64,000 bases of DNA, taken from positions 46,872,001 through 46,936,000 of the forward strand of contig NC_091999.1 of assembly GCF_044704955.1 (NCBI RefSeq). The letters run 5' to 3'. The first letter of the stretch is position 1, and the number at the start of each line of letters is the position of its first letter. Shown piece by piece: positions 12,829-28,615 of this stretch. Source of the stretch: Pristiophorus japonicus (Eukaryota). Under the pieces are notes generated by a model. The model saw only the letters and a list, made by a program, of their open reading frames with translations. It ran no database searches and was not told the DNA's origin. The translations under genes were made by a program, and so were the position numbers.

Positions 12829-12880
12829 ATGAGGATGAGGTCGGCGATTGCTTTCGTTCTGTTGCTGGCTTTACTTTCCC
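12829..12880 (+). pseudogene. IGHV: IgH V leader exon (MRMRSAIAFVLLLALLS, phase-1 donor)
   Basis: Hydrophobic signal peptide; 52 nt ending TCC C|GTGTGT. Splices to TTTTACAG|GT GTC CAG TCG at 13009 to give ..LSRVQS-DVVLTQ. Confidence 0.9.
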
Positions 12881-13008: not shown

Positions 13009-13328
13009 GTGTCCAGTCGGATGTGGTGTTGACTCAGCCCGAGGCAAAGACCAGGATTTCCTGAGGCTTCCTGAGACTGACCTGTAAACCAGCGGGTTCG
13101 ATCTTAGCGGATATGGCATGAACTGGGTCCGCCAGGTTCCCGCACAGGAGCTGGAGTGGCTGGTTTACTATTACACTCCATCGAACAAGAATAACGTCCC
13201 AGGGATTGATAGCCGATTTACTGTATCCAAAGACACTTCAAACAACATCTTCACGTTGGACATGAAGAACATGAGGAGCGAAGACACCGCCATCTATTAC
13301 TGTGCAAGGAAGGACTACGGGAGTGGGT
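13009..13328 (+). pseudogene. IGHV: IgM VH pseudogene exon with germline-fused D-like segment
   Basis: [83 protein letters not shown]. In-frame TGA at 13062-13064 and a 1-nt deletion after TGT AAA (~13089). 19 extra nt (13310-13328) follow CAR and end in GTGGGT like shark D1 segments. Confidence 0.93.
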
Positions 13329-13366
13329 CACGGTGAAATACAGAGCGAGCTCTCCATACAAAAACC
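13329..13366 (+). promoter_or_regulatory. Recombination signal sequence, 22-bp spacer
   Basis: Heptamer CACGGTG 13329-13335, 22-nt spacer 13336-13357, perfect nonamer ACAAAAACC 13358-13366. Confidence 0.93.
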
Positions 13367-13685
13367 CCAGACAGGGAGTTTGCTCAAACCTGCGACCATT
13401 ACCACGCCAGGAGCGTCGAAGGAACTGAGGCTTAAATAAAAATAATTAGAAATAAGTTATATATATATATATATATTTAAATGTGTAACAGTTTTCTTCT
13501 TTATTACTATTGATTGCCATGTTGAAAATGCACAGATGCTTCAGAAGTATTCCAATCATTTTTGTAAATATAATGAACGGTAAAAAATGAAATATCTCGC
13601 TGATTCACTCTTACGAGAGTCGGAATCGGGTTTTTAGAGCTGTGTGGAATTTAATCTCTGTATTTTACAGTTAACAGTCCGCCGG

Positions 13686-13713
13686 AGTATTTGACACAAC
13701 GTGTCTCACTGTG
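13686..13713 (-). promoter_or_regulatory. RSS 5' of JH, apparent 12-bp spacer
   Basis: Perfect heptamer CACTGTG 13707-13713, 12-nt spacer CACAACGTGTCT, and nonamer AGTATTTGA 13686-13694 (6/9 match to GGTTTTTGT). No nonamer-like sequence at a 22/23 spacing. Confidence 0.7.
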
Positions 13714-13763
13714 TTACGCAATGGGCTACTGGGGACAAGGGACCATGGTGAAGGTGACTGCAG
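13714..13763 (+). CDS. IGHJ: IgH J segment (YAMGYWGQGTMVKVTA), intact, phase-1 donor
   Basis: WGQGT motif followed by G|GTAAGG at 13764. Confidence 0.95.
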
Positions 13764-13849
13764 GTAAGGAGCATTCACTGATTCAGTAACACTTGTATTT
13801 GTGTCTTTATTTTATATTTTTGTTTATTTTAATAATTACTTTGTTCACT

Positions 13850-20318: not shown

Positions 20319-20618
20319 TAACACGGTCTCCCCCCACCCTCTGCCCCCTGTTCGCCTCCTGTGAACAACCCAGCACCGATGGCTCCATCACGTAGGGCTG
20401 TTTGGTGATGGACTACTCCCCTGACATCATCAGACTTTTCTGGAAGGAAGATAAAGAGCCGATCACCACTGGATTGAAGATCTACCCGTCATTGATCAAA
20501 AAGAATTGAGCCTACACACTGAGCAGCCAGTTAACCATCACCGAGTCCGAGTTGGGGAGCAGCACAATTTGCTGCGAGGTTCGACGTGGTGGATCGGTGT
20601 GGAACATCACAATGTCAG
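20319..20618 (+). pseudogene. IGHM: IgM constant exon Cmu1 (two nonsense codons)
   Basis: CCCAG|TA ACA..: [97 protein letters not shown]|GT, matching shark Cmu1. TAG at 20393 and TGA at 20507. Confidence 0.93.
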
Positions 20619-20629
20619 GTTAATGATGT

Positions 20630-20990
20630 GAGATACAGGGCAAACTGTGATAAGGTGAGAAGTTATGTTCAACTTGTATAGAAACTTGGTTAGACAACAG
20701 TTAGAGTACTGTGCATAGTTCTGGTCTCCATATAATACTTAGAATACTGTGCACAGTTCTAGTTTCCTTATCACATTTAGAATATTGTTTACAATTCTGC
20801 TTTCCTTCTCATACTTAGAATACTGTGTGAAGTTCTGGTCTCCATATCATACTTAGAATAGTATGCACAGCTCTGGTCTCCCTATCACACTTAGAATACT
20901 GTGCATGGTTCTGGTCCCCATATCGCACTTAGAATATTATGCACAGTTCTGGTCTGCATATTACACTGAGTATACTGTGCACAATCTTGC
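20630..20990 (+). repeat. 38-bp minisatellite derived from a CR1 RT fragment
   Basis: AGAAT core at 20741, 20779, 20817, 20855, 20893 and 20931 (period 38). Unit ACTTAGAATACTGTGCACAGTTCTGGTCTCCATATCAC encodes the CR1 motif HLEYCAQFWSPY, preceded by VMFNLYRNLVRQQLEYC. Confidence 0.88.
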
Positions 20991-21112
20991 TCTCTTCAAA
21001 TGCCAGGTTAGTGTGAATCTGACAGCAAAGAACTTGTTAAAATATAAGGACACTTTGCATTTCTTAATCATTTATTTTACAAGCAATGTCAATAAAATGC
21101 CTTCTCGTAAAC

Positions 21113-21430
21113 GTCCTGAACGGATCATCGTTCCTCCAATTGTTCTCCTCTTGCTAAGCTCCACTGAACAAATCATCAGCAGCAGATATGCAAGCGCCAT
21201 GTGTTTAATCATCGAATTAAGGCCAAAGTCACTGACCGTGAATTGGCTGAAGAGTGAACAACTCCTGGATTCGGGCTTCACCACCTCTCCCGCCTTTGAG
21301 ATGAACAGAAACGTTTTGACGGCCAGTCGGCTGACACTCCCCGACAGGGAATGGTTCACCGGCTCGGTCTACACCTGCCAGGTCACTCATGAATGGGGCA
21401 CACAAAGCCGTAACTTCAGCAGATCTCAGG
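21113..21430 (+). pseudogene. IGHM: IgM constant exon Cmu2 (open frame, canonical acceptor not seen)
   Basis: VPPIVLLLLSSTEQIISSRYASAMCLIIELRPKSLTVNWLK..LDSGFTTSP..TASRLTLPDREWFTGSVYTCQVTH..TQSRNFSRSQG|GTAAGA. No phase-1 AG near 21105-21115, so the start is approximate. Confidence 0.88.
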
Positions 21431-21559
21431 GTAAGAGGCACAATCCAGGGAGGTTCCAGACCATTCTGAGCGTTGATCTCAGTCAGGACTTTGATTGAAA
21501 TTAGTAGAAAGCAGAGGAATATTCCTAATTTCCAATCATGCAGTTTGTGTATTCTTGCG

Positions 21560-21985
21560 ATACAATGTTGCCTTTATACAGCGCCTTCAGCGACCACAGA
21601 CTGAACCAAAGCGCTTGCCAGGCAATGAATTAAGTTGTGAAATGTGGTCACAGTTGTAATGTATAAAGTGCGGCAGTCATTTAGTGCACAGCAAGCTCCC
21701 ACAAACAGCAGTGTGATAACGACTATTTTTTTTGTTTAGTGTTATTTCTTGAGGTATTAATATTCCCAGGACACCAGGGAGAACTCCTCTGCTTTTCATT
21801 GAAATAATTCCAGGGGAACTTTTACCTCCACCTGAGAGGCTAGACGGATTCTTGGTTTAACACATGATCCGAAATACGGCACCTCCGACAATGCACCACG
21901 CCCCCAGTACTGCACTGAGAGACTCAGCTTACATACTGTGATCAAATAACTGGAGTGAGACTTCAACCCACGATCTTCTGGTTCA
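21560..21985 (-). mobile_element. Deu-core SINE
   Basis: Reverse complement of the 3470-3902 element (GCACAGCAAGCTCCCACAAACAGCA; CCAGGACACCAGGGAGAACTCC). Confidence 0.75.
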
Positions 21986-22184
21986 GGATTCCTCATTGCT
22001 CAGGATTTATTATCCTCGCCAAAGAAGCTTTCCCCTTGCTCTGGTGTCAGGCAGTGAGTGAAGTGTCCTTAGTCTCAGGTATATCCTGAGTTGGCTGATC
22101 ATATACGGAATGGCAATAGGAGTCTGGAATCCTTTAATGCTAACTGTCCAGGAACCCACTGCAAGAATGGGCATCTACCCTATT

Positions 22185-22697
22185 CAGAGTACTGAGCCCA
22201 ATTCTGGGCTCCGCACCTGAGGAAGGATATACGTGGAGGTGCTAAACTGCAGGTTTACCCGAATTATACCGGGGCTAACAATGTAAAATGATCAGGTGGT
22301 GAGTATAGAACGTCAAGAGATGATACAATTGACGTGTTTAAGTTGATAAATGGAATTGTATCGATTAGTTATAGAAACATTTATTTAGTTTGATGTGAGA
22401 GTCCACAACAAGTAGCAGAACCTTAACATTAGAGTTAGGCCGTGCAGAGGTGATGTCAGAAAGGATTTTCTCACAGGAAGAATAGTGCAAGTCGGGATTT
22501 CCCTCCCCAAAAGCTGCTGACACTTGCTTTCAATTGAAAAGTTGAAAACTGAAATTGATAGATTTTTGTTCGGCAAGGTTATCATGGGTTACATAACCAA
22601 GGCGTGAAGATGGTGTTGAGTGTTGATCAGCCATGATCTAACTAGATGGCGGGACAGAATGGATGGGCTGAATGGCCTTCTCCTATTCCTATGTTAC
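22185..22697 (+). mobile_element. CR1 3' fragment
   Basis: EY..QFWAPHLRKD remnant; 3' UTR GATCAGCCATGATC..GGGCTGAATGGCCT..TCCTATTCCTATGTT. Confidence 0.75.
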
Positions 22698-23401
22698 TAT
22701 TAATGCCCTGAGGTCATAGTGCTTTCTGAATCTCTCTCACCAGACATGATAAATGTTCAGTAATTACAGATATTAACAAACTACCTTACATCATTACAAA
22801 TGATGCCCCACCACAAAAGATTCCTTGCAACTCCATTCTCCGGAACTTGCACTTCTTCTCTGACGGGGGATGTGACTGGTTCGTGCACATTTTCATCGCA
22901 ACAAAAATAGCAGCAAAAGACTAGAAACTTAACTTTGTTTCCTGTTGTCCCATAAATCCTGAAATTAATTTGACACTGGTTTTGAACAAGTATAATGCTA
23001 GTGTAGACCTCTTGAACTTGGGCTATTCGGGCTTCAGCCATTATAACCAGTGGAGATGCACTTGGGTGCAATAATCTATAGACGGGCGTAAAGGAGCAAA
23101 GGATTTCAGAAAGAGCGCTATTCAGTGCCTATCACAATTGCGTCCCAATGTATTCCCATTTTACGCCAGGTATTTGTTTCATAGCCCATTACAGGTGGCT
23201 CTGGCTCAAATACACAGGAAATATTACAGACCTCCCGGAATTGTTGCCAATTCATTGTCCTTCCATAACGACGGTGTTCAAGCAATAGCGAGAGGTTGAT
23301 ATCTCAAAAGTGAGAATTTCCCCTTGAAAGAGTTAAGGCTAATTATTGGTGTCCTGATTCTGAAGATGCGGCTTTTCCTGACTTTCATTCCTGTTTCGCA
23401 G

Positions 23402-23709
23402 TGGATGTCCCATGCAGCGATTAAAAATCACTCTTCGCCCACCGTAATTGGAACAGGTTTTACTGGAGGCGACGGTGACCTTAACGTGTGTCGTGTCTGA
23501 CGCTCCTTATGGGCTCACCGTGACCTGGACCCGAAAAAACGAGACTTTGAAATCAGAGATTGCCGTCCAACCCAGAGAGGATCCCAACAGTGTGATCAGC
23601 AACTTAAACATCTCGACAAAAGACTGGCTGAGTGGGGATAAGTTCTACTGCGTGGTGAGCCATCAGGATATGCCGATTCCTCTCAGAGATTCCAGCCACA
23701 AGGAAAAGG
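23402..23709 (+). pseudogene. IGHM: IgM constant exon Cmu3 (frameshift and stop near the 5' end)
   Basis: TTTCGCAG|TG GAT GTC CCA TGC, then a frameshift at ~23422 and TAA at 23445. The rest reads [77 protein letters not shown]|GTGAGC. Confidence 0.92.
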
Positions 23710-24626
23710 GTGAGCGGGGAGATTGTTGCAATAAGTGAGAAACTGCGACAATTTCGATGCGTGTGCAAGGGCCAATTGATTATATAAAGTGTTTAATGGC
23801 TACTCTGATCATTCAGGTTGGTAATTCCACCAACTCAGCACTCTGGGACCTGAGATTATGTATTTTAGGGGAAACTGGATAAGTCCATGAGCGAGAAAGA
23901 AATAGAAGGGTATATTATTAGGTTTAGATGAAGTGGGCTCGGAGGAGGCTTGTGTGGATCACAACCACCGGCATAGAGCAGTTGGCCAAATCTCCTCGTT
24001 CTGTGCATTAAATTCTATGTCATTTTCCAGTCCAACGCTTCAAGATTTCAGAGAGAAAGATCACGTTCCCTCTGATAAGGGATGGAAAACCAGAGAGGCA
24101 ACAGAGGGGAAAAGGTAAAATGTTAAAATGCAATGCAGTGTCCATTTCTCTCACATCTAACCATCGGAAAATGGCTGAATTTAAATGAGGAAGGCGAGTT
24201 GTGGGCGTTGGTCTCACAGGCCACCAGTGAAAGCGGGAGGATTGGAAGCCGAGTGAGGAGGTCGCGGATCGCGGGCGATGGGTTAGGCAGGGACCCTGGA
24301 TCCAGGAGGTCGGTGTAAGGGCAATTACCAGCTGGGCGCAGCAATCCCCGCCTTGCTGTAACTGCTGAGATTTACACAGTTTGTCAAGCCGGACCAGCGA
24401 CAGTTAAACACCAAATGGTGGTTAAAATAGAGGATTCCAATCTCATTTAAATATATTACTCAAATGTAATATTACAACTGGAAGTAGGCGAGTTGAGGTC
24501 GGGATTCTGATTTTTACCAATTTAACAACCTCCACGCCCACAACCCGCCCGCTGTATTGGGTTGAAATTCCCCCATTGTCTCTGGAACTATCCAGTTCAT
24601 TGGCCTTTGTTGTAACTGTCCTACAG

Positions 24627-24991
24627 CGAAAGATCCGCGGGAACCGGCCATGTCTGTCCTCCTGCCCTCAGCAGAAGAAGTCTCTGCTCAGAGGTTGGTC
24701 AGCCTCACCTGCTTAGTGAGAGGTTTCTCCCCCCGAGAGATCTTCGTCAAAAGGACCGTCAATGATAAACTGGTGGATTACGGCAACTACAAGAACACCG
24801 AGGTGATGGCGGAGAACGGCAGCAGCTCCTTCTTCATGTACAGCCTGCTATCCATTGCAGCCAAGGAATGGGCCAGCGGCGACTCTCACTCCTGTGTGGT
24901 GGGACATGAAGTGATCCCATTGATAATCACCAACAGAACCGTCAATAAATCCAATGGTAAAGCATTTCCCTTGTTCTGATGGACAACGTCA
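24627..24991 (+). pseudogene. IGHM: IgM constant exon Cmu4 plus 5' part of the secretory tailpiece
   Basis: CTACAG|CG AAA GAT CCG: [42 protein letters not shown](W lost)[51 protein letters not shown]. Internal TM donor G|GTAAAG at 24957. After a deletion/frameshift the tailpiece reads ISLVLMDNV, then the LINE begins. Confidence 0.93.
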
Positions 24992-26921
24992 TAAGAACAT
25001 AAGAACATAAGAATTAGGAACAGGAGAAGGCCATCTAGCCTCTCGAGCCTGCTCCGCCATTCAACAAGATCAGGGCTGATCTGGGCTTGGACTCAGCTCC
25101 ACTTACCCGCCCGCTCCCCATAACCCTTAATTCCCTTATTGGTTAAAAATCTATCTATCTGTGAATTGAATACATTCAATGAGCTATCCTCAATTCCTCC
25201 CCTTTGCAGAGAATTCCACAGATTCACAACTTTGTTGGAGAAGAAATTCCTTCTCAACTCAGTTTTAAATTGGCTCACTCGTATTTTGAGTCTCTGCCCC
25301 CTAGTTCTAGTCTCCCCGACCAGTGGAAACAACCCCACTGCCTCTATCTTGTGTATGCCTGTCATTGTTTGAAATGTTTCTATCGATCACCCCTCATCCT
25401 TCTGAACTCCAACGAGTAAAGACCCACTCTACTCAATCTATCATCATAAGGTAACCCCCTCATCTCCTGAATCAGCCTCGTGAATCAACTCTGTACCCCC
25501 TCCAAAGCTAGTATATCCTTCCTTAAGTAAGGTGGCCAAAACTGCACGCAGTACTCCAGGTGCGGCCTCACCAACACCCTATACAGTTGCAGAAGGACCT
25601 CCCTGCTTTTGTACTCCATCCCTCTGGCAATCAAGGCCAACATTCCATTCGCCTTCCTGATTACCTGCTGCAGCTGCAAACTAACATCTTGGGATTCATG
25701 GACAAGGACCCCCAGATCCCTCTGCATCGCAGCATGTTATAATTTCTCCCCATTCAAATAATATTCCCTTTGCGTGTTTTTTTTCTTCAAGGTGGATGAC
25801 CTCACACTTTCCGACATTGTATTCCATCTGGCAAGCCTTAGCCCATTCGCTTAACCTATCTAAATCTCTTTGCATCCTTTCTGTGTCCTCTGCACAACCC
25901 GCTTTCCCACTAATCTTTGTGCCATCTGCAAATTTTGTTACACTACACTCTGTCCCCTCTTCCAGGTCATCTATGTATATTGTAAACAGTTGTAGTCCCA
26001 GCATCGATCCCTGTGGCACACCACTAACCACCGATTTCCAACCCGAAAAGGACCCATTCATCACGACTCTCTGTTTTCTGTTAGCCAGCCAATTCTCTAT
26101 CCATGCTAATACATTTCCTCTGACTCCGTGTCCCTTTATCTTCTGCAGTAACTTTTTGTGTGGGACCTTATCGAATGCCTTTTGAAAATCTAAATACACC
26201 ACATCCATCGGTTCACCTCTATCCACCATGCTCGTTAACTCCTCAAAGAATTCCAGTAAATTAGTTAAACATGATTACCCCTTCATGAATCCATGCTGCG
26301 TCTGCTTGATTGCACTATTCCAATCTAGATGTCCCGCTATTTCTTCCTTAATGATAGTTTCAAGCATTTTCCCCACTACAGATGTTAAACTAACCGGCCT
26401 ATAGTTACCTGCCTTTTGTCTGCCCTCTTTTTTTACACAGAAGTGTTACATTAGCTTCTTTCCAATCCGCCGGTACCTCCCCAGAGTCCAGAGAGTTTTG
26501 GTGGATTATAACGAATGCATCTGCTATAACTTCCGCCATCGATTTTAATACCCTGGGATGCATTTCATCAGGACCTGGGGACTTGTCTACCTTGAGTCCC
26601 ATTAGCCTGTCCAGCACTACCCCCCTAGTGATAGTGATTGTCTCAAGGTCCTCCCTTCCCACATTCCTTTGACCAGCAATTTCTGGCATGGTTTTTGTGT
26701 CTTCCACTGTGGAGACCGAAGCAAAATAATTGTTTAAGCTCTCAGCCATTTCCACATTTCCCATTATTAAAACTCCCTTCTCATCTTCTAAGGGACCAAC
26801 ATTTACTTTAGTCACTCTTTTCCGTTTTACATATCTGTAAAAGCTTTTACTATCCGTTTTCATGTTTTGCGCAAGTTTATCTTTGTAATCGATCTTGCCT
26901 TTCTTTATTGCTTTCTTCGAC
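24992..26921 (-). mobile_element. 5'-truncated CR1 LINE (~1.9 kb) with intact 3' tail, inserted in the secretory tailpiece
   Basis: (ATAAGAAC)n tail at ~24991-25013. RT ORFs 26405-26932, 25696-26229 (VPQGSMLG, KFADGTK), 25485-25727 and 25093-25365. Confidence 0.95.
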
Positions 26922-26979
26922 ATTCTTGTCAATGAGAATGTCTCGATTGCATTTCAGTACTTGAATAAAAAACAATAAA
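26922..26979 (+). pseudogene. IGHM: 3' remnant of the IgM secretory tailpiece (..SCQ*) with poly(A) signals
   Basis: AT TCT TGT CAA TGA at 26922-26935; AATAAA at 26964-26969 and 26974-26979. Confidence 0.85.
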
Positions 26980-27699
26980 GGGCTTTTCTTCCAACCGTGA
27001 GTTAAACACACAGCCTTTACAATTAATTATGTTTCCTATTTTGGCCAATGTGAGGGCTGTTTATCTGAAATAGGGTGTTTGCGGATCTCGTTCCCAAGGC
27101 TTGTACAGCCAGCGCTCCCAGCTCAGATACAGCATGAGTTAGAAACTGGGTGGAGTTCTCTCATTACAGGATTCCTGAAGGTAACCTCAGCTGAGAGGGA
27201 GTAAAGGGTAATTTTTACTCACTGTACCTCTCACACGCACCAGCGAGAGGAGAAAGGGAAACGTGTAATTCATGTAACCTCCACTGCCCCTCCCGCAGGG
27301 TGATGGGAAGTGAACCACTCTCTTTGAAATGCAGTAAGTTGCCATCGTACGTTCTAACCCATGATCTAAAGATTTTAAACTTTCCATATGAGTATTATAT
27401 TCTGAAATAGCTATTTATTCCACGTAATATTTTTAAATAGGGTTGGGGGTGCAACAGTCCCTGTTAATTGTAAACTAACATGTTGAATTCTAATGGGCCA
27501 TGTCTAAACTGGTGAATGAATCCTCTGCGGGTTTCTCACAGTTGTGTCCCTGATGTTGCTGAAGCCCATCGGTTGAATTGTTGCATTCGTTCGGCTGATG
27601 TCACATTGCGCCTCACACAGAACACATTTACACAGAGCGGAGGAGAATACATGTGAAAGTGAGTTTGTGTGTGTTCACATGTGAGTGTTTTGATGATTT

Positions 27700-28615
27700 T
27701 GTATAAGTTTGTGTTTTTGTGTAAGTGCACAATTACACATAAACACACATAGACTTACATATAAAGACATACTAACAACCTGACACGTAATATTATACAT
27801 AACTAGAATATAATGAAAACCATCATTGTCAAATCCAGTTATTGGTACTCTCTGAAACTTTGAACAATAGCAATAATAAACGTCAATCGAAACGTACACT
27901 TGCACAACTGAAACTTATACACACTTACAAAAACATAGACACACATATCAATCCAGACACACACTAACACAAAACACACTTACATACATTTACACACATA
28001 TCAACACATACATCAATCCACACACACATTAATACAAAACACACTTATACATACTTACACACATATAAACACACACATCTATCCACGCACACACTTGCAC
28101 AAAGCAAACTTACACACACATAAACACACACATCAATCCACACACACACTTACACAAAACACACAAACAGACTTACACACAGATAAATATACACGTCAAT
28201 CCACACACAGACTTGCACAAAACACATACACACTCGTAAACAAACGCATCAATCCAAATACAGATATACACAAAACACACACACGCTTACATGCAAACAC
28301 ACTATTGCACTTATACACACGCATCAATCAAAACACACACTTACACGAAACATACACACACATACACACACAGACTTACATCTAAACATGAACAACATTG
28401 AGACATAACCATACACTTGCAGGAAAACACACACCTCAACACACTTACACAAACATGAACATGCATATAAATCCAAACGCAAACTAACACAAAACATACA
28501 CACACACTTACATGTAAACACAATGTTACACGAAAACTCAAACACACTTACACCTCAACATAAACAAACATTTCGACATAACCATACTTATACATGTCCA
28601 CACATGAACAAAGCA
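27700..28615 (+). repeat. CA-rich degenerate minisatellite / low-complexity tract
   Basis: Recurrent CATCAATCCACACAC..ACAAAACACAC..TTACACA units. Confidence 0.8.

Follow-up and report, generated by a model that had tools for sequence, protein, structure and literature searches.

It is very probable that the cluster found in the window (the whole stretch of 64,000 nucleotides of Pristiophorus japonicus DNA that was analysed, located on contig C23 of a 5.9 Gb genome) is an inherited, half-assembled IgM cluster of the form VD1-22RSS...12RSS-J, which likely arose through two RAG-type cuts in germ cells, was then copied, and is now a pseudogene. The window gene itself is a dead member of an already known kind. 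The new part is the scale: most of the recovered IgM loci lack D2, and this variant is worth follow-up.

All segments of the window cluster lie on the forward strand, with the RSS of J read in reverse. The leader exon (12835-12880, MRSAIAFVLLLALLS) has the donor GTGTGT, compared with GTGAGT in most paralogs. The VH exon, a pseudogene (13009-13309), ends in TGT GCA AGG at 13309 and, relative to unjoined paralogs of its own family (family A, see below), is missing its final 3-4 nt and its 23-RSS. It is followed by a germline V-D1 coding joint (13310-13328) made up of two extra nucleotides (AA) and a full-length D1 of 17 nt; together, these 19 nt translate as KDYGSG in the V frame. The 3' RSS of D1 (13329-13366) consists of CACGGTG (13329-13335), a 22-nt spacer, and ACAAAAACC (13358-13366). 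One match to the 22-RSS pattern occurs in the window, where 0.01 would be expected, and 1 of 100 shuffles gave one match. RSSs were evaluated by comparison with those of two-D clusters, in which the D1 RSS spacer has the same length. Next comes, as its interval homology to two-D clusters shows, the former D1-D2 intersegment (13367-13685), within which the RSS scan gave no other RSS. The 12-spacer RSS on J (13686-13713, reverse strand), originally the 5' RSS of D2, comprises AGTATTTGA (13686-13694), a 12-nt spacer, and CACTGTG (13707-13713). The stretch 13714-13763 consists of two extra nucleotides (TT) and a full-length JH (YAMGYWGQGTMVKVTA), with the GT donor at 13764; 16 nt precede TGGGG in the window J vs. 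14 in the J of two-D clusters. An earlier sequence-only reading of the window had described the 19 nt after V, the 22-RSS, the 12-RSS J, and the lack of any RSS-flanked D between them, and all four were found at the positions it gave. The element at J that it called nonamer-like is one base off the native D2 nonamer and is therefore not decayed. The J heptamer has this nonamer at 12 nt, no nonamer-like sequence at 23 nt, and none at 21-24 nt in the RSS scan; a J RSS of the 22/23 type, which would have spoken against that reading, was thus not found.

The constant region, delimited by comparison with intact paralogs, lies within 20321-27107 on the same strand: Cmu1 at 20321-20614 (with a stop), Cmu2 at 21115-21429, Cmu3 at 23409-23708 (with a stop), and Cmu4 at 24629-24991, where homology resumes at 26922. 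The identity of the genes was confirmed on intact paralogs, one of which (L028) gave a Pfam V-set match, and Cmu4 of an intact paralog matches human IgM Cmu4 through the tailpiece (E 3e-49). The loci checked show the plan of a cartilaginous-fish IgM cluster, i.e., one V, D segment(s), one J, their own Cmu1-4, a secretory tail, and TM. The window copy, as the sequence-only reading had judged, is dead: V is disabled by a TGA at 13062 and a 1-nt deletion near 13086, and the C region by stops in Cmu1 and Cmu3 and by an insert of about 1.9 kb (24992-26921) that splits Cmu4 before the tailpiece. No TM exon was found within the window. Homology of the window to the intact paralog ends at 28594, and between about 28595 and 34540 lie remnants of ORFs in which a zinc knuckle and an RNase H-like domain can be recognized, resembling an LTR retroelement.

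IgM loci were collected with three DNA searches, in which 40 candidates each were scored out of 93, 71, and 74, respectively, and with a J pattern that matched 70 times; together, these yielded at least 81 non-redundant loci, all of them classified. Trees separate family A (at least 66 loci) from family B (at least 15 loci), with V about 33% apart. Both are IgM, with four C exons, a tailpiece, and TM in the loci checked, except that no TM was found for L101; an assignment of family B to IgW was considered and ruled out, as its Cmu1-4, tail, and TM are present as in family A. Fifty-six of the at least 66 family-A loci are located on C23, between 15.3 and 66.3 Mb; the ten recovered copies on other contigs may in part be duplicate haplotypes. 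Family A comprises 9 single-D V-D-J, 35 VD-J, 20 V-DJ, and 2 VDJ loci. The VD-J loci have two different joints, VD-a (at least 26 copies, including the window) and VD-b (at least 9 copies), whereas the V-DJ loci (at least 20 copies) have four junction types. Neither a free D2 nor a J 23-RSS was found in the 66 recovered family-A loci, none of which has the canonical V-D1-D2-J arrangement with two 12-RSSs around D2 and a 23-RSS on J. In family B, 12 loci are canonical (V-23/12-D1-22/12-D2-12/23-J), and germline joins are present in L082, L104, and L103, namely two likely D1-D2 fusions and one of the V-DJ type.

The germline V-D1 fusion proposed in the sequence-only reading is supported by the nine unjoined family-A copies (L041-L049), in which V, with 3-4 more nucleotides, is followed by a 23-RSS, about 470 nt, a 12-RSS, and a 17-nt D1 that carries the same 22-RSS as the window. 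From this comparison, it follows that the window V was trimmed by 3-4 nt, that 2 nt were added, and that D1 was left complete; both the V 23-RSS and the 5' RSS of D1 have been removed. The stretch 13310-13366, suggested to be D1 plus its 3' RSS, is matched in these copies, and no unrearranged paralog combines the 19-nt V extension with the lack of a D. Joined and unjoined paralogs are 87-100% alike. The window's junction is present in 26 loci (four with 1-nt variants), whereas the VD-b joint differs (CARDYSNG) and can be read as a short-homology overlap. In the V tree, each junction class forms its own clade (VD-a 100/100, VD-b 100/99); therefore, V-D1 joining occurred twice. Judged from genomic sequence, the V-D1 joint is inherited: 26 diverged copies have it in common, and DNA contigs bridge the junction. 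In all six partial joints of family A, D1 is held in the DYSSG frame; the two alternative frames are likewise open. If the joints were independent, an equal frame would arise by chance with a probability of (1/3)^5, about 0.004, but short homologies could bias this figure; the shared frame hints at selection on the protein.

The 12-RSS on J can be traced to D2. Positions 13329-13713 align to the D1 3' RSS, the D1-D2 spacer, and the D2 5' RSS of a two-D cluster and then jump to J, with 221 of 282 paired columns identical (78%); in the final 70 nt before J, 61 are identical to the pre-D2 sequence of L071. The stretch 13367-13685 reaches local scores of 110-119 against the D1-D2 interval in all four two-D clusters tested vs. 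18-20 against their V-D1 and D2-J intervals, with shuffle maxima of 24-31. The D1-D2 interval is thus the sole two-D interval that scores above shuffles; it is the first of the two intersegments (D1-D2 or D-J) that the sequence-only reading had named as possible matches of 13367-13713. The window has kept this intersegment with both RSSs and has lost the D2-J interval, which was found in family B only. D elements with a 3' 12-RSS occur in at least 14 places genome-wide, and the same number was obtained for J-type 23-RSS spacers; in both cases, 14 of 14 belong to family B and none lies on C23. A consensus J 23-RSS pattern gave no matches, the actual nonamer being GGTTATTGT. In another species (DNA run X8), the homologous 12-RSS is followed by a D2 of 14 nt and a 3' heptamer CACAGCA, and J contigs from another species bear the spacer end of the family-B 23-RSS. 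Judged from these alignments, D2, the D2-J spacer, and the J 23-RSS are shown to have been deleted, with D2's 5' 12-RSS left on J. No two-D cluster of family A's V family is present among the at least 81 recovered loci. The D2-less state was then duplicated into a single-D cluster type, as represented by the nine unjoined V-D-J copies. The sequence-only reading had offered two origins for the J RSS, a germline D2-J join that kept D2's 5' RSS or a native J of a single-D cluster type. At the sequence level, both hold: D2's RSS was left on J through the loss of D2, and a single-D cluster type came later. Of D2 itself, 0 or 2 nt could remain. J is full length; in 12 of 44 copies, the heptamer is flush with the 14-nt J, and in the other 32 it stands 2 nt away. 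The two forms are interleaved across clades on three trees, and D2 may have been lost in one event followed by conversion or in several events.

Regarding the mechanism, we give about even chances to a RAG hybrid joint between D2's 5' 12-RSS and J's 23-RSS, in which the signal end of the former would be joined to the coding end of J; at the sequence level, the rival routes give identical products. A hybrid joint is favoured because these two RSSs are compatible and have the same orientation. The geometry of a signal end joined to a coding end fits, and 12 of 44 copies have the flush form; other routes yield the same product. Shark germline hybrid joints that swap RSSs have been described and can gain or lose bases (PMC2193153).

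The strongest competitor, somewhat less probable, is an ordinary coding joint between D2 (through its 3' 12-RSS) and J (through its 23-RSS), with D2 trimmed to 0-2 nt, which would give a textbook VD-DJ cluster. Its geometry is that of standard deletional joining, somatic D2-J joins are known in the nurse shark from the available part of PMC2435157, and the locus L069, a germline joint in which D1 is cut to 6 nt, shows that a heavily trimmed joint can become fixed in the germline. The 2 nt found between heptamer and J in 32 of 44 copies would likewise suit it, as would a 12RSS-J DNA contig of another species (X7, organism C) with 8 inserted letters starting with GTAT, which represents an ordinary D2-J join. 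However, such a joint would require 11-13 of about 13 nt to be cut from D2 and none from J, while in five of the six other partial joints 16-17 nt of D1 are retained, and the extra TT or TA is unlike the first bases of D2 (GT) in the two-D clusters of this genome (family B). Less readily, a non-RAG deletion of about 450 nt might have occurred between the identical direct CACTGTG heptamers that precede D2 and J. Two-D clusters do have CACTGTG at both sites in the same orientation, and the product would be the flush form (12 of 44 copies); this leaves the +2 form (32 of 44) unexplained, and since no fewer than seven further joints in family A lie at RSS ends, RSS-directed cutting is needed anyway.

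It is improbable that family A represents an old native single-D cluster type in which J always had a 12-RSS. The nine unjoined V-D-J copies would fit, and a monotypic shark IgM family is reportedly a single-D cluster. The pre-J sequence, however, corresponds to the D1-D2 spacer plus D2's RSS, and a different RSS, with a longer spacer, is found at the J of the two-D clusters here and in J contigs of another species; these comparisons would contradict a native type unless D2 was a later insertion. The words 'single D' occur twice in PMC2191167, which is counted in favour of a native type. Two further origins, rearrangement in a somatic lymphocyte and an artefact of assembly, both named in advance as grounds for rejecting the germline reading, can practically be dismissed. 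VD-DJ intermediates do exist in shark lymphocytes (PMC2435157, in the part available), and the 10 of 66 copies placed on other contigs may in part be duplicate haplotypes. A single junction is nevertheless shared by 26 loci with V-exon differences of up to 9%, a divergence that excludes such an origin of the joint, and short-read DNA contigs (X2) show the junction.

The history of family A can be reconstructed as follows. First, D2, the D2-J spacer, and the J 23-RSS were deleted, by an enzyme that we infer to be RAG, giving a single-D cluster (V-23/12-D1-22/12-J) that still complies with the 12/23 rule and survives unjoined in nine recovered copies. V then joined D1 in the germline twice independently; the joint is seen directly, and RAG is its presumed agent. 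Finally, the products were duplicated along 51 Mb of one contig, C23. RAG activity in germ cells is presumed here; it has been argued for shark light chains in the accessible text of PMC2193156. The V-DJ joints may derive from either D2-less or two-D ancestors. In L050-L056, L058, and L067, which form two separate clades, a full D1 is followed by ACA and a full J; the ACA (V-DJ1, V-DJ3) fits either P and N addition or a D2 start overlapping the D1 end.

Germline-joined clusters as such are not new, and the novelty implied by the sequence-only reading was overrated, since germline VD-J, VD-DJ, and VDJ clusters are listed for sharks in PMC2193153 and, in its available part, PMC5192425; VD-J clusters are also listed in the sections available of PMC4279169 and PMC6795676, and somatic VD-DJ in those of PMC2435157. 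The closest relatives are the VD-DJ clusters of the horned shark and of the little skate (PMC2193153; PMC5192425 in part), which share with the window the V-D1 fusion, the D2-side RSS on J, and the single 22/12 joint, and which likewise belong to a multi-cluster IgM system with unjoined and fully joined clusters alongside. As far as the junctions can be compared by the descriptions in the accessible text, the present genes differ in that they have essentially no D2 coding sequence left (0-2 nt) and in that the D2-less state spans a whole V family, including members in which V and D1 are still unjoined. A horned shark germline hybrid joint (PMC2193153, Fig. 2B iii) also moved an RSS onto the coding end of another segment, but it inverts the D1-D2 interval, whereas here D2 would be deleted and J changed from 23 to 12. 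The somatic VD-DJ and V-D-DJ intermediates of the nurse shark (PMC2435157, partial text) match in configuration and likewise use three RSS pairs in no fixed order; those are unique to each cell, while the present ones are inherited and amplified to 9-26 copies. Nurse shark NS4 light chains and IgM1gj (partial texts of PMC2193156 and PMC4279169) similarly show, between closely related paralogs, repeated independent germline joints with little trimming, yet they are fully joined and expressed in pups, in contrast to the genes described here, which are mostly half-joined and keep four Cmu domains. No description of a D2-less IgM family with a 12-RSS J was found in the papers cited here, a set that leaves out the original reports on horn shark, skate, and nurse shark clusters, and the available part of PMC12227049 yielded nothing on the number of D segments.

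Heavy-chain germline joins are hard to dissect, and their undetected expression in the horn shark cast doubt on their significance, according to the available text of PMC2193156. Here, the paralogs are so alike that every joint is readable at single-base level and can be assigned to a position in a tree; the intact half-joined genes, moreover, have CDR3 tags of their own, which are countable in repertoire reads. Family A would exemplify how germline RSS swapping leads to a new segment plan (single D, 12-RSS J), as proposed in PMC2193153; the window copy is only a pseudogene marker of that family.

Intact paralogs of the same layout, anticipated by the sequence-only reading, do exist in nine copies; they carry CARDYSNG in place of the window's joint. 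All 26 recovered VD-a copies are frameshifted, and a search for CARKDYGSG should therefore yield no productive transcript; the CDR3 predicted from the window is unlikely to be made. In contrast, all nine recovered VD-b copies, seven of them on C23, are open in leader, V, Cmu1-4, and TM. They have the same 22-RSS and, in seven of nine, a standard 12-RSS (the other two have one-base nonamer changes), and an untrimmed joint would be in frame and read CARDYSNGYATGYW. Leader and V are also open in 9 of 9 recovered V-D-J and 15 of 20 V-DJ copies; C exons, examined in three of the former and two of the latter, were open. In intact VD-b genes, one deletional 22/12 joint in a B cell, as in the assembly of a light chain, is predicted to complete a heavy chain with a fixed CDR3 start (CARDYSNG), and the sister V-DJ genes would be the mirror image, with a fixed CDR3 end. 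A single joint is all that about 24 genes of family A, open in leader and V, still require. It is tempting to propose that, in this shark lineage, one germline hybrid joint re-wired the family to a single D by giving J a 12-RSS and that at least six more germline joints, all with D1 in its DY-G frame, gave about two dozen intact single-joint genes with a half-fixed CDR3; these would outnumber the 12 canonical clusters recovered and hold a real share of the expressed repertoire. We regard this as possible, though less likely than not.

Evidence from reads comes from contigs only. Contigs that span the D2-less RSS-J junction are present in DNA run X2 (two records), possibly made from the very sample used for the assembly, and also in X5 (one record), for which another study sampled the same organism a second time. 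X5 also contains one spliced contig (leader intron removed at GT..AG, depth 6.4) whose V-to-J junction is absent from the 81 loci; its V has 6 differences from VD-b vs. 23-25 from V-DJ1, while its junction is of the V-DJ1 type. It was rejected as proof of productive single-joint assembly, being out of frame and a mosaic between paralogs; it could reflect a single somatic joint to a V-DJ1 end, and at best it shows spliced transcription. No productive single-joint transcript was seen among the contigs examined. In X6 (organism B, presumed RNA), the V-to-J junctions are 19-32 letters long, and a single 12RSS-J contig, with two gaps, is present; together with X7, this indicates that D2-J joins are not unique to Pristiophorus japonicus.

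Several individual loci deserve mention. L079 (C27:19.72 Mb), a canonical two-D cluster, has frameshifts in Cmu3 and TM, and the number of functional canonical clusters is therefore below 12. L069 (C19:63.8 Mb) and L104 (C3:330.7 Mb) are lone IgM clusters dispersed onto other large contigs, and L027 is identical to L028 across the V region. Complete in-frame germline VDJ genes with the CDR3 CASGTNALHHW are found in L101 (C23:66.13 Mb), which has open Cmu1-4 and no TM within 20 kb, and in L102 (C31:1.52 Mb), in which the V cysteines are lost. Ten dead VD-a copies (L010-L018 and L020) have in common a change in the J heptamer (CACTCTG) and a base change in J; the ten copies are not grouped as a single clade in the V tree, which is a sign of conversion between clusters.
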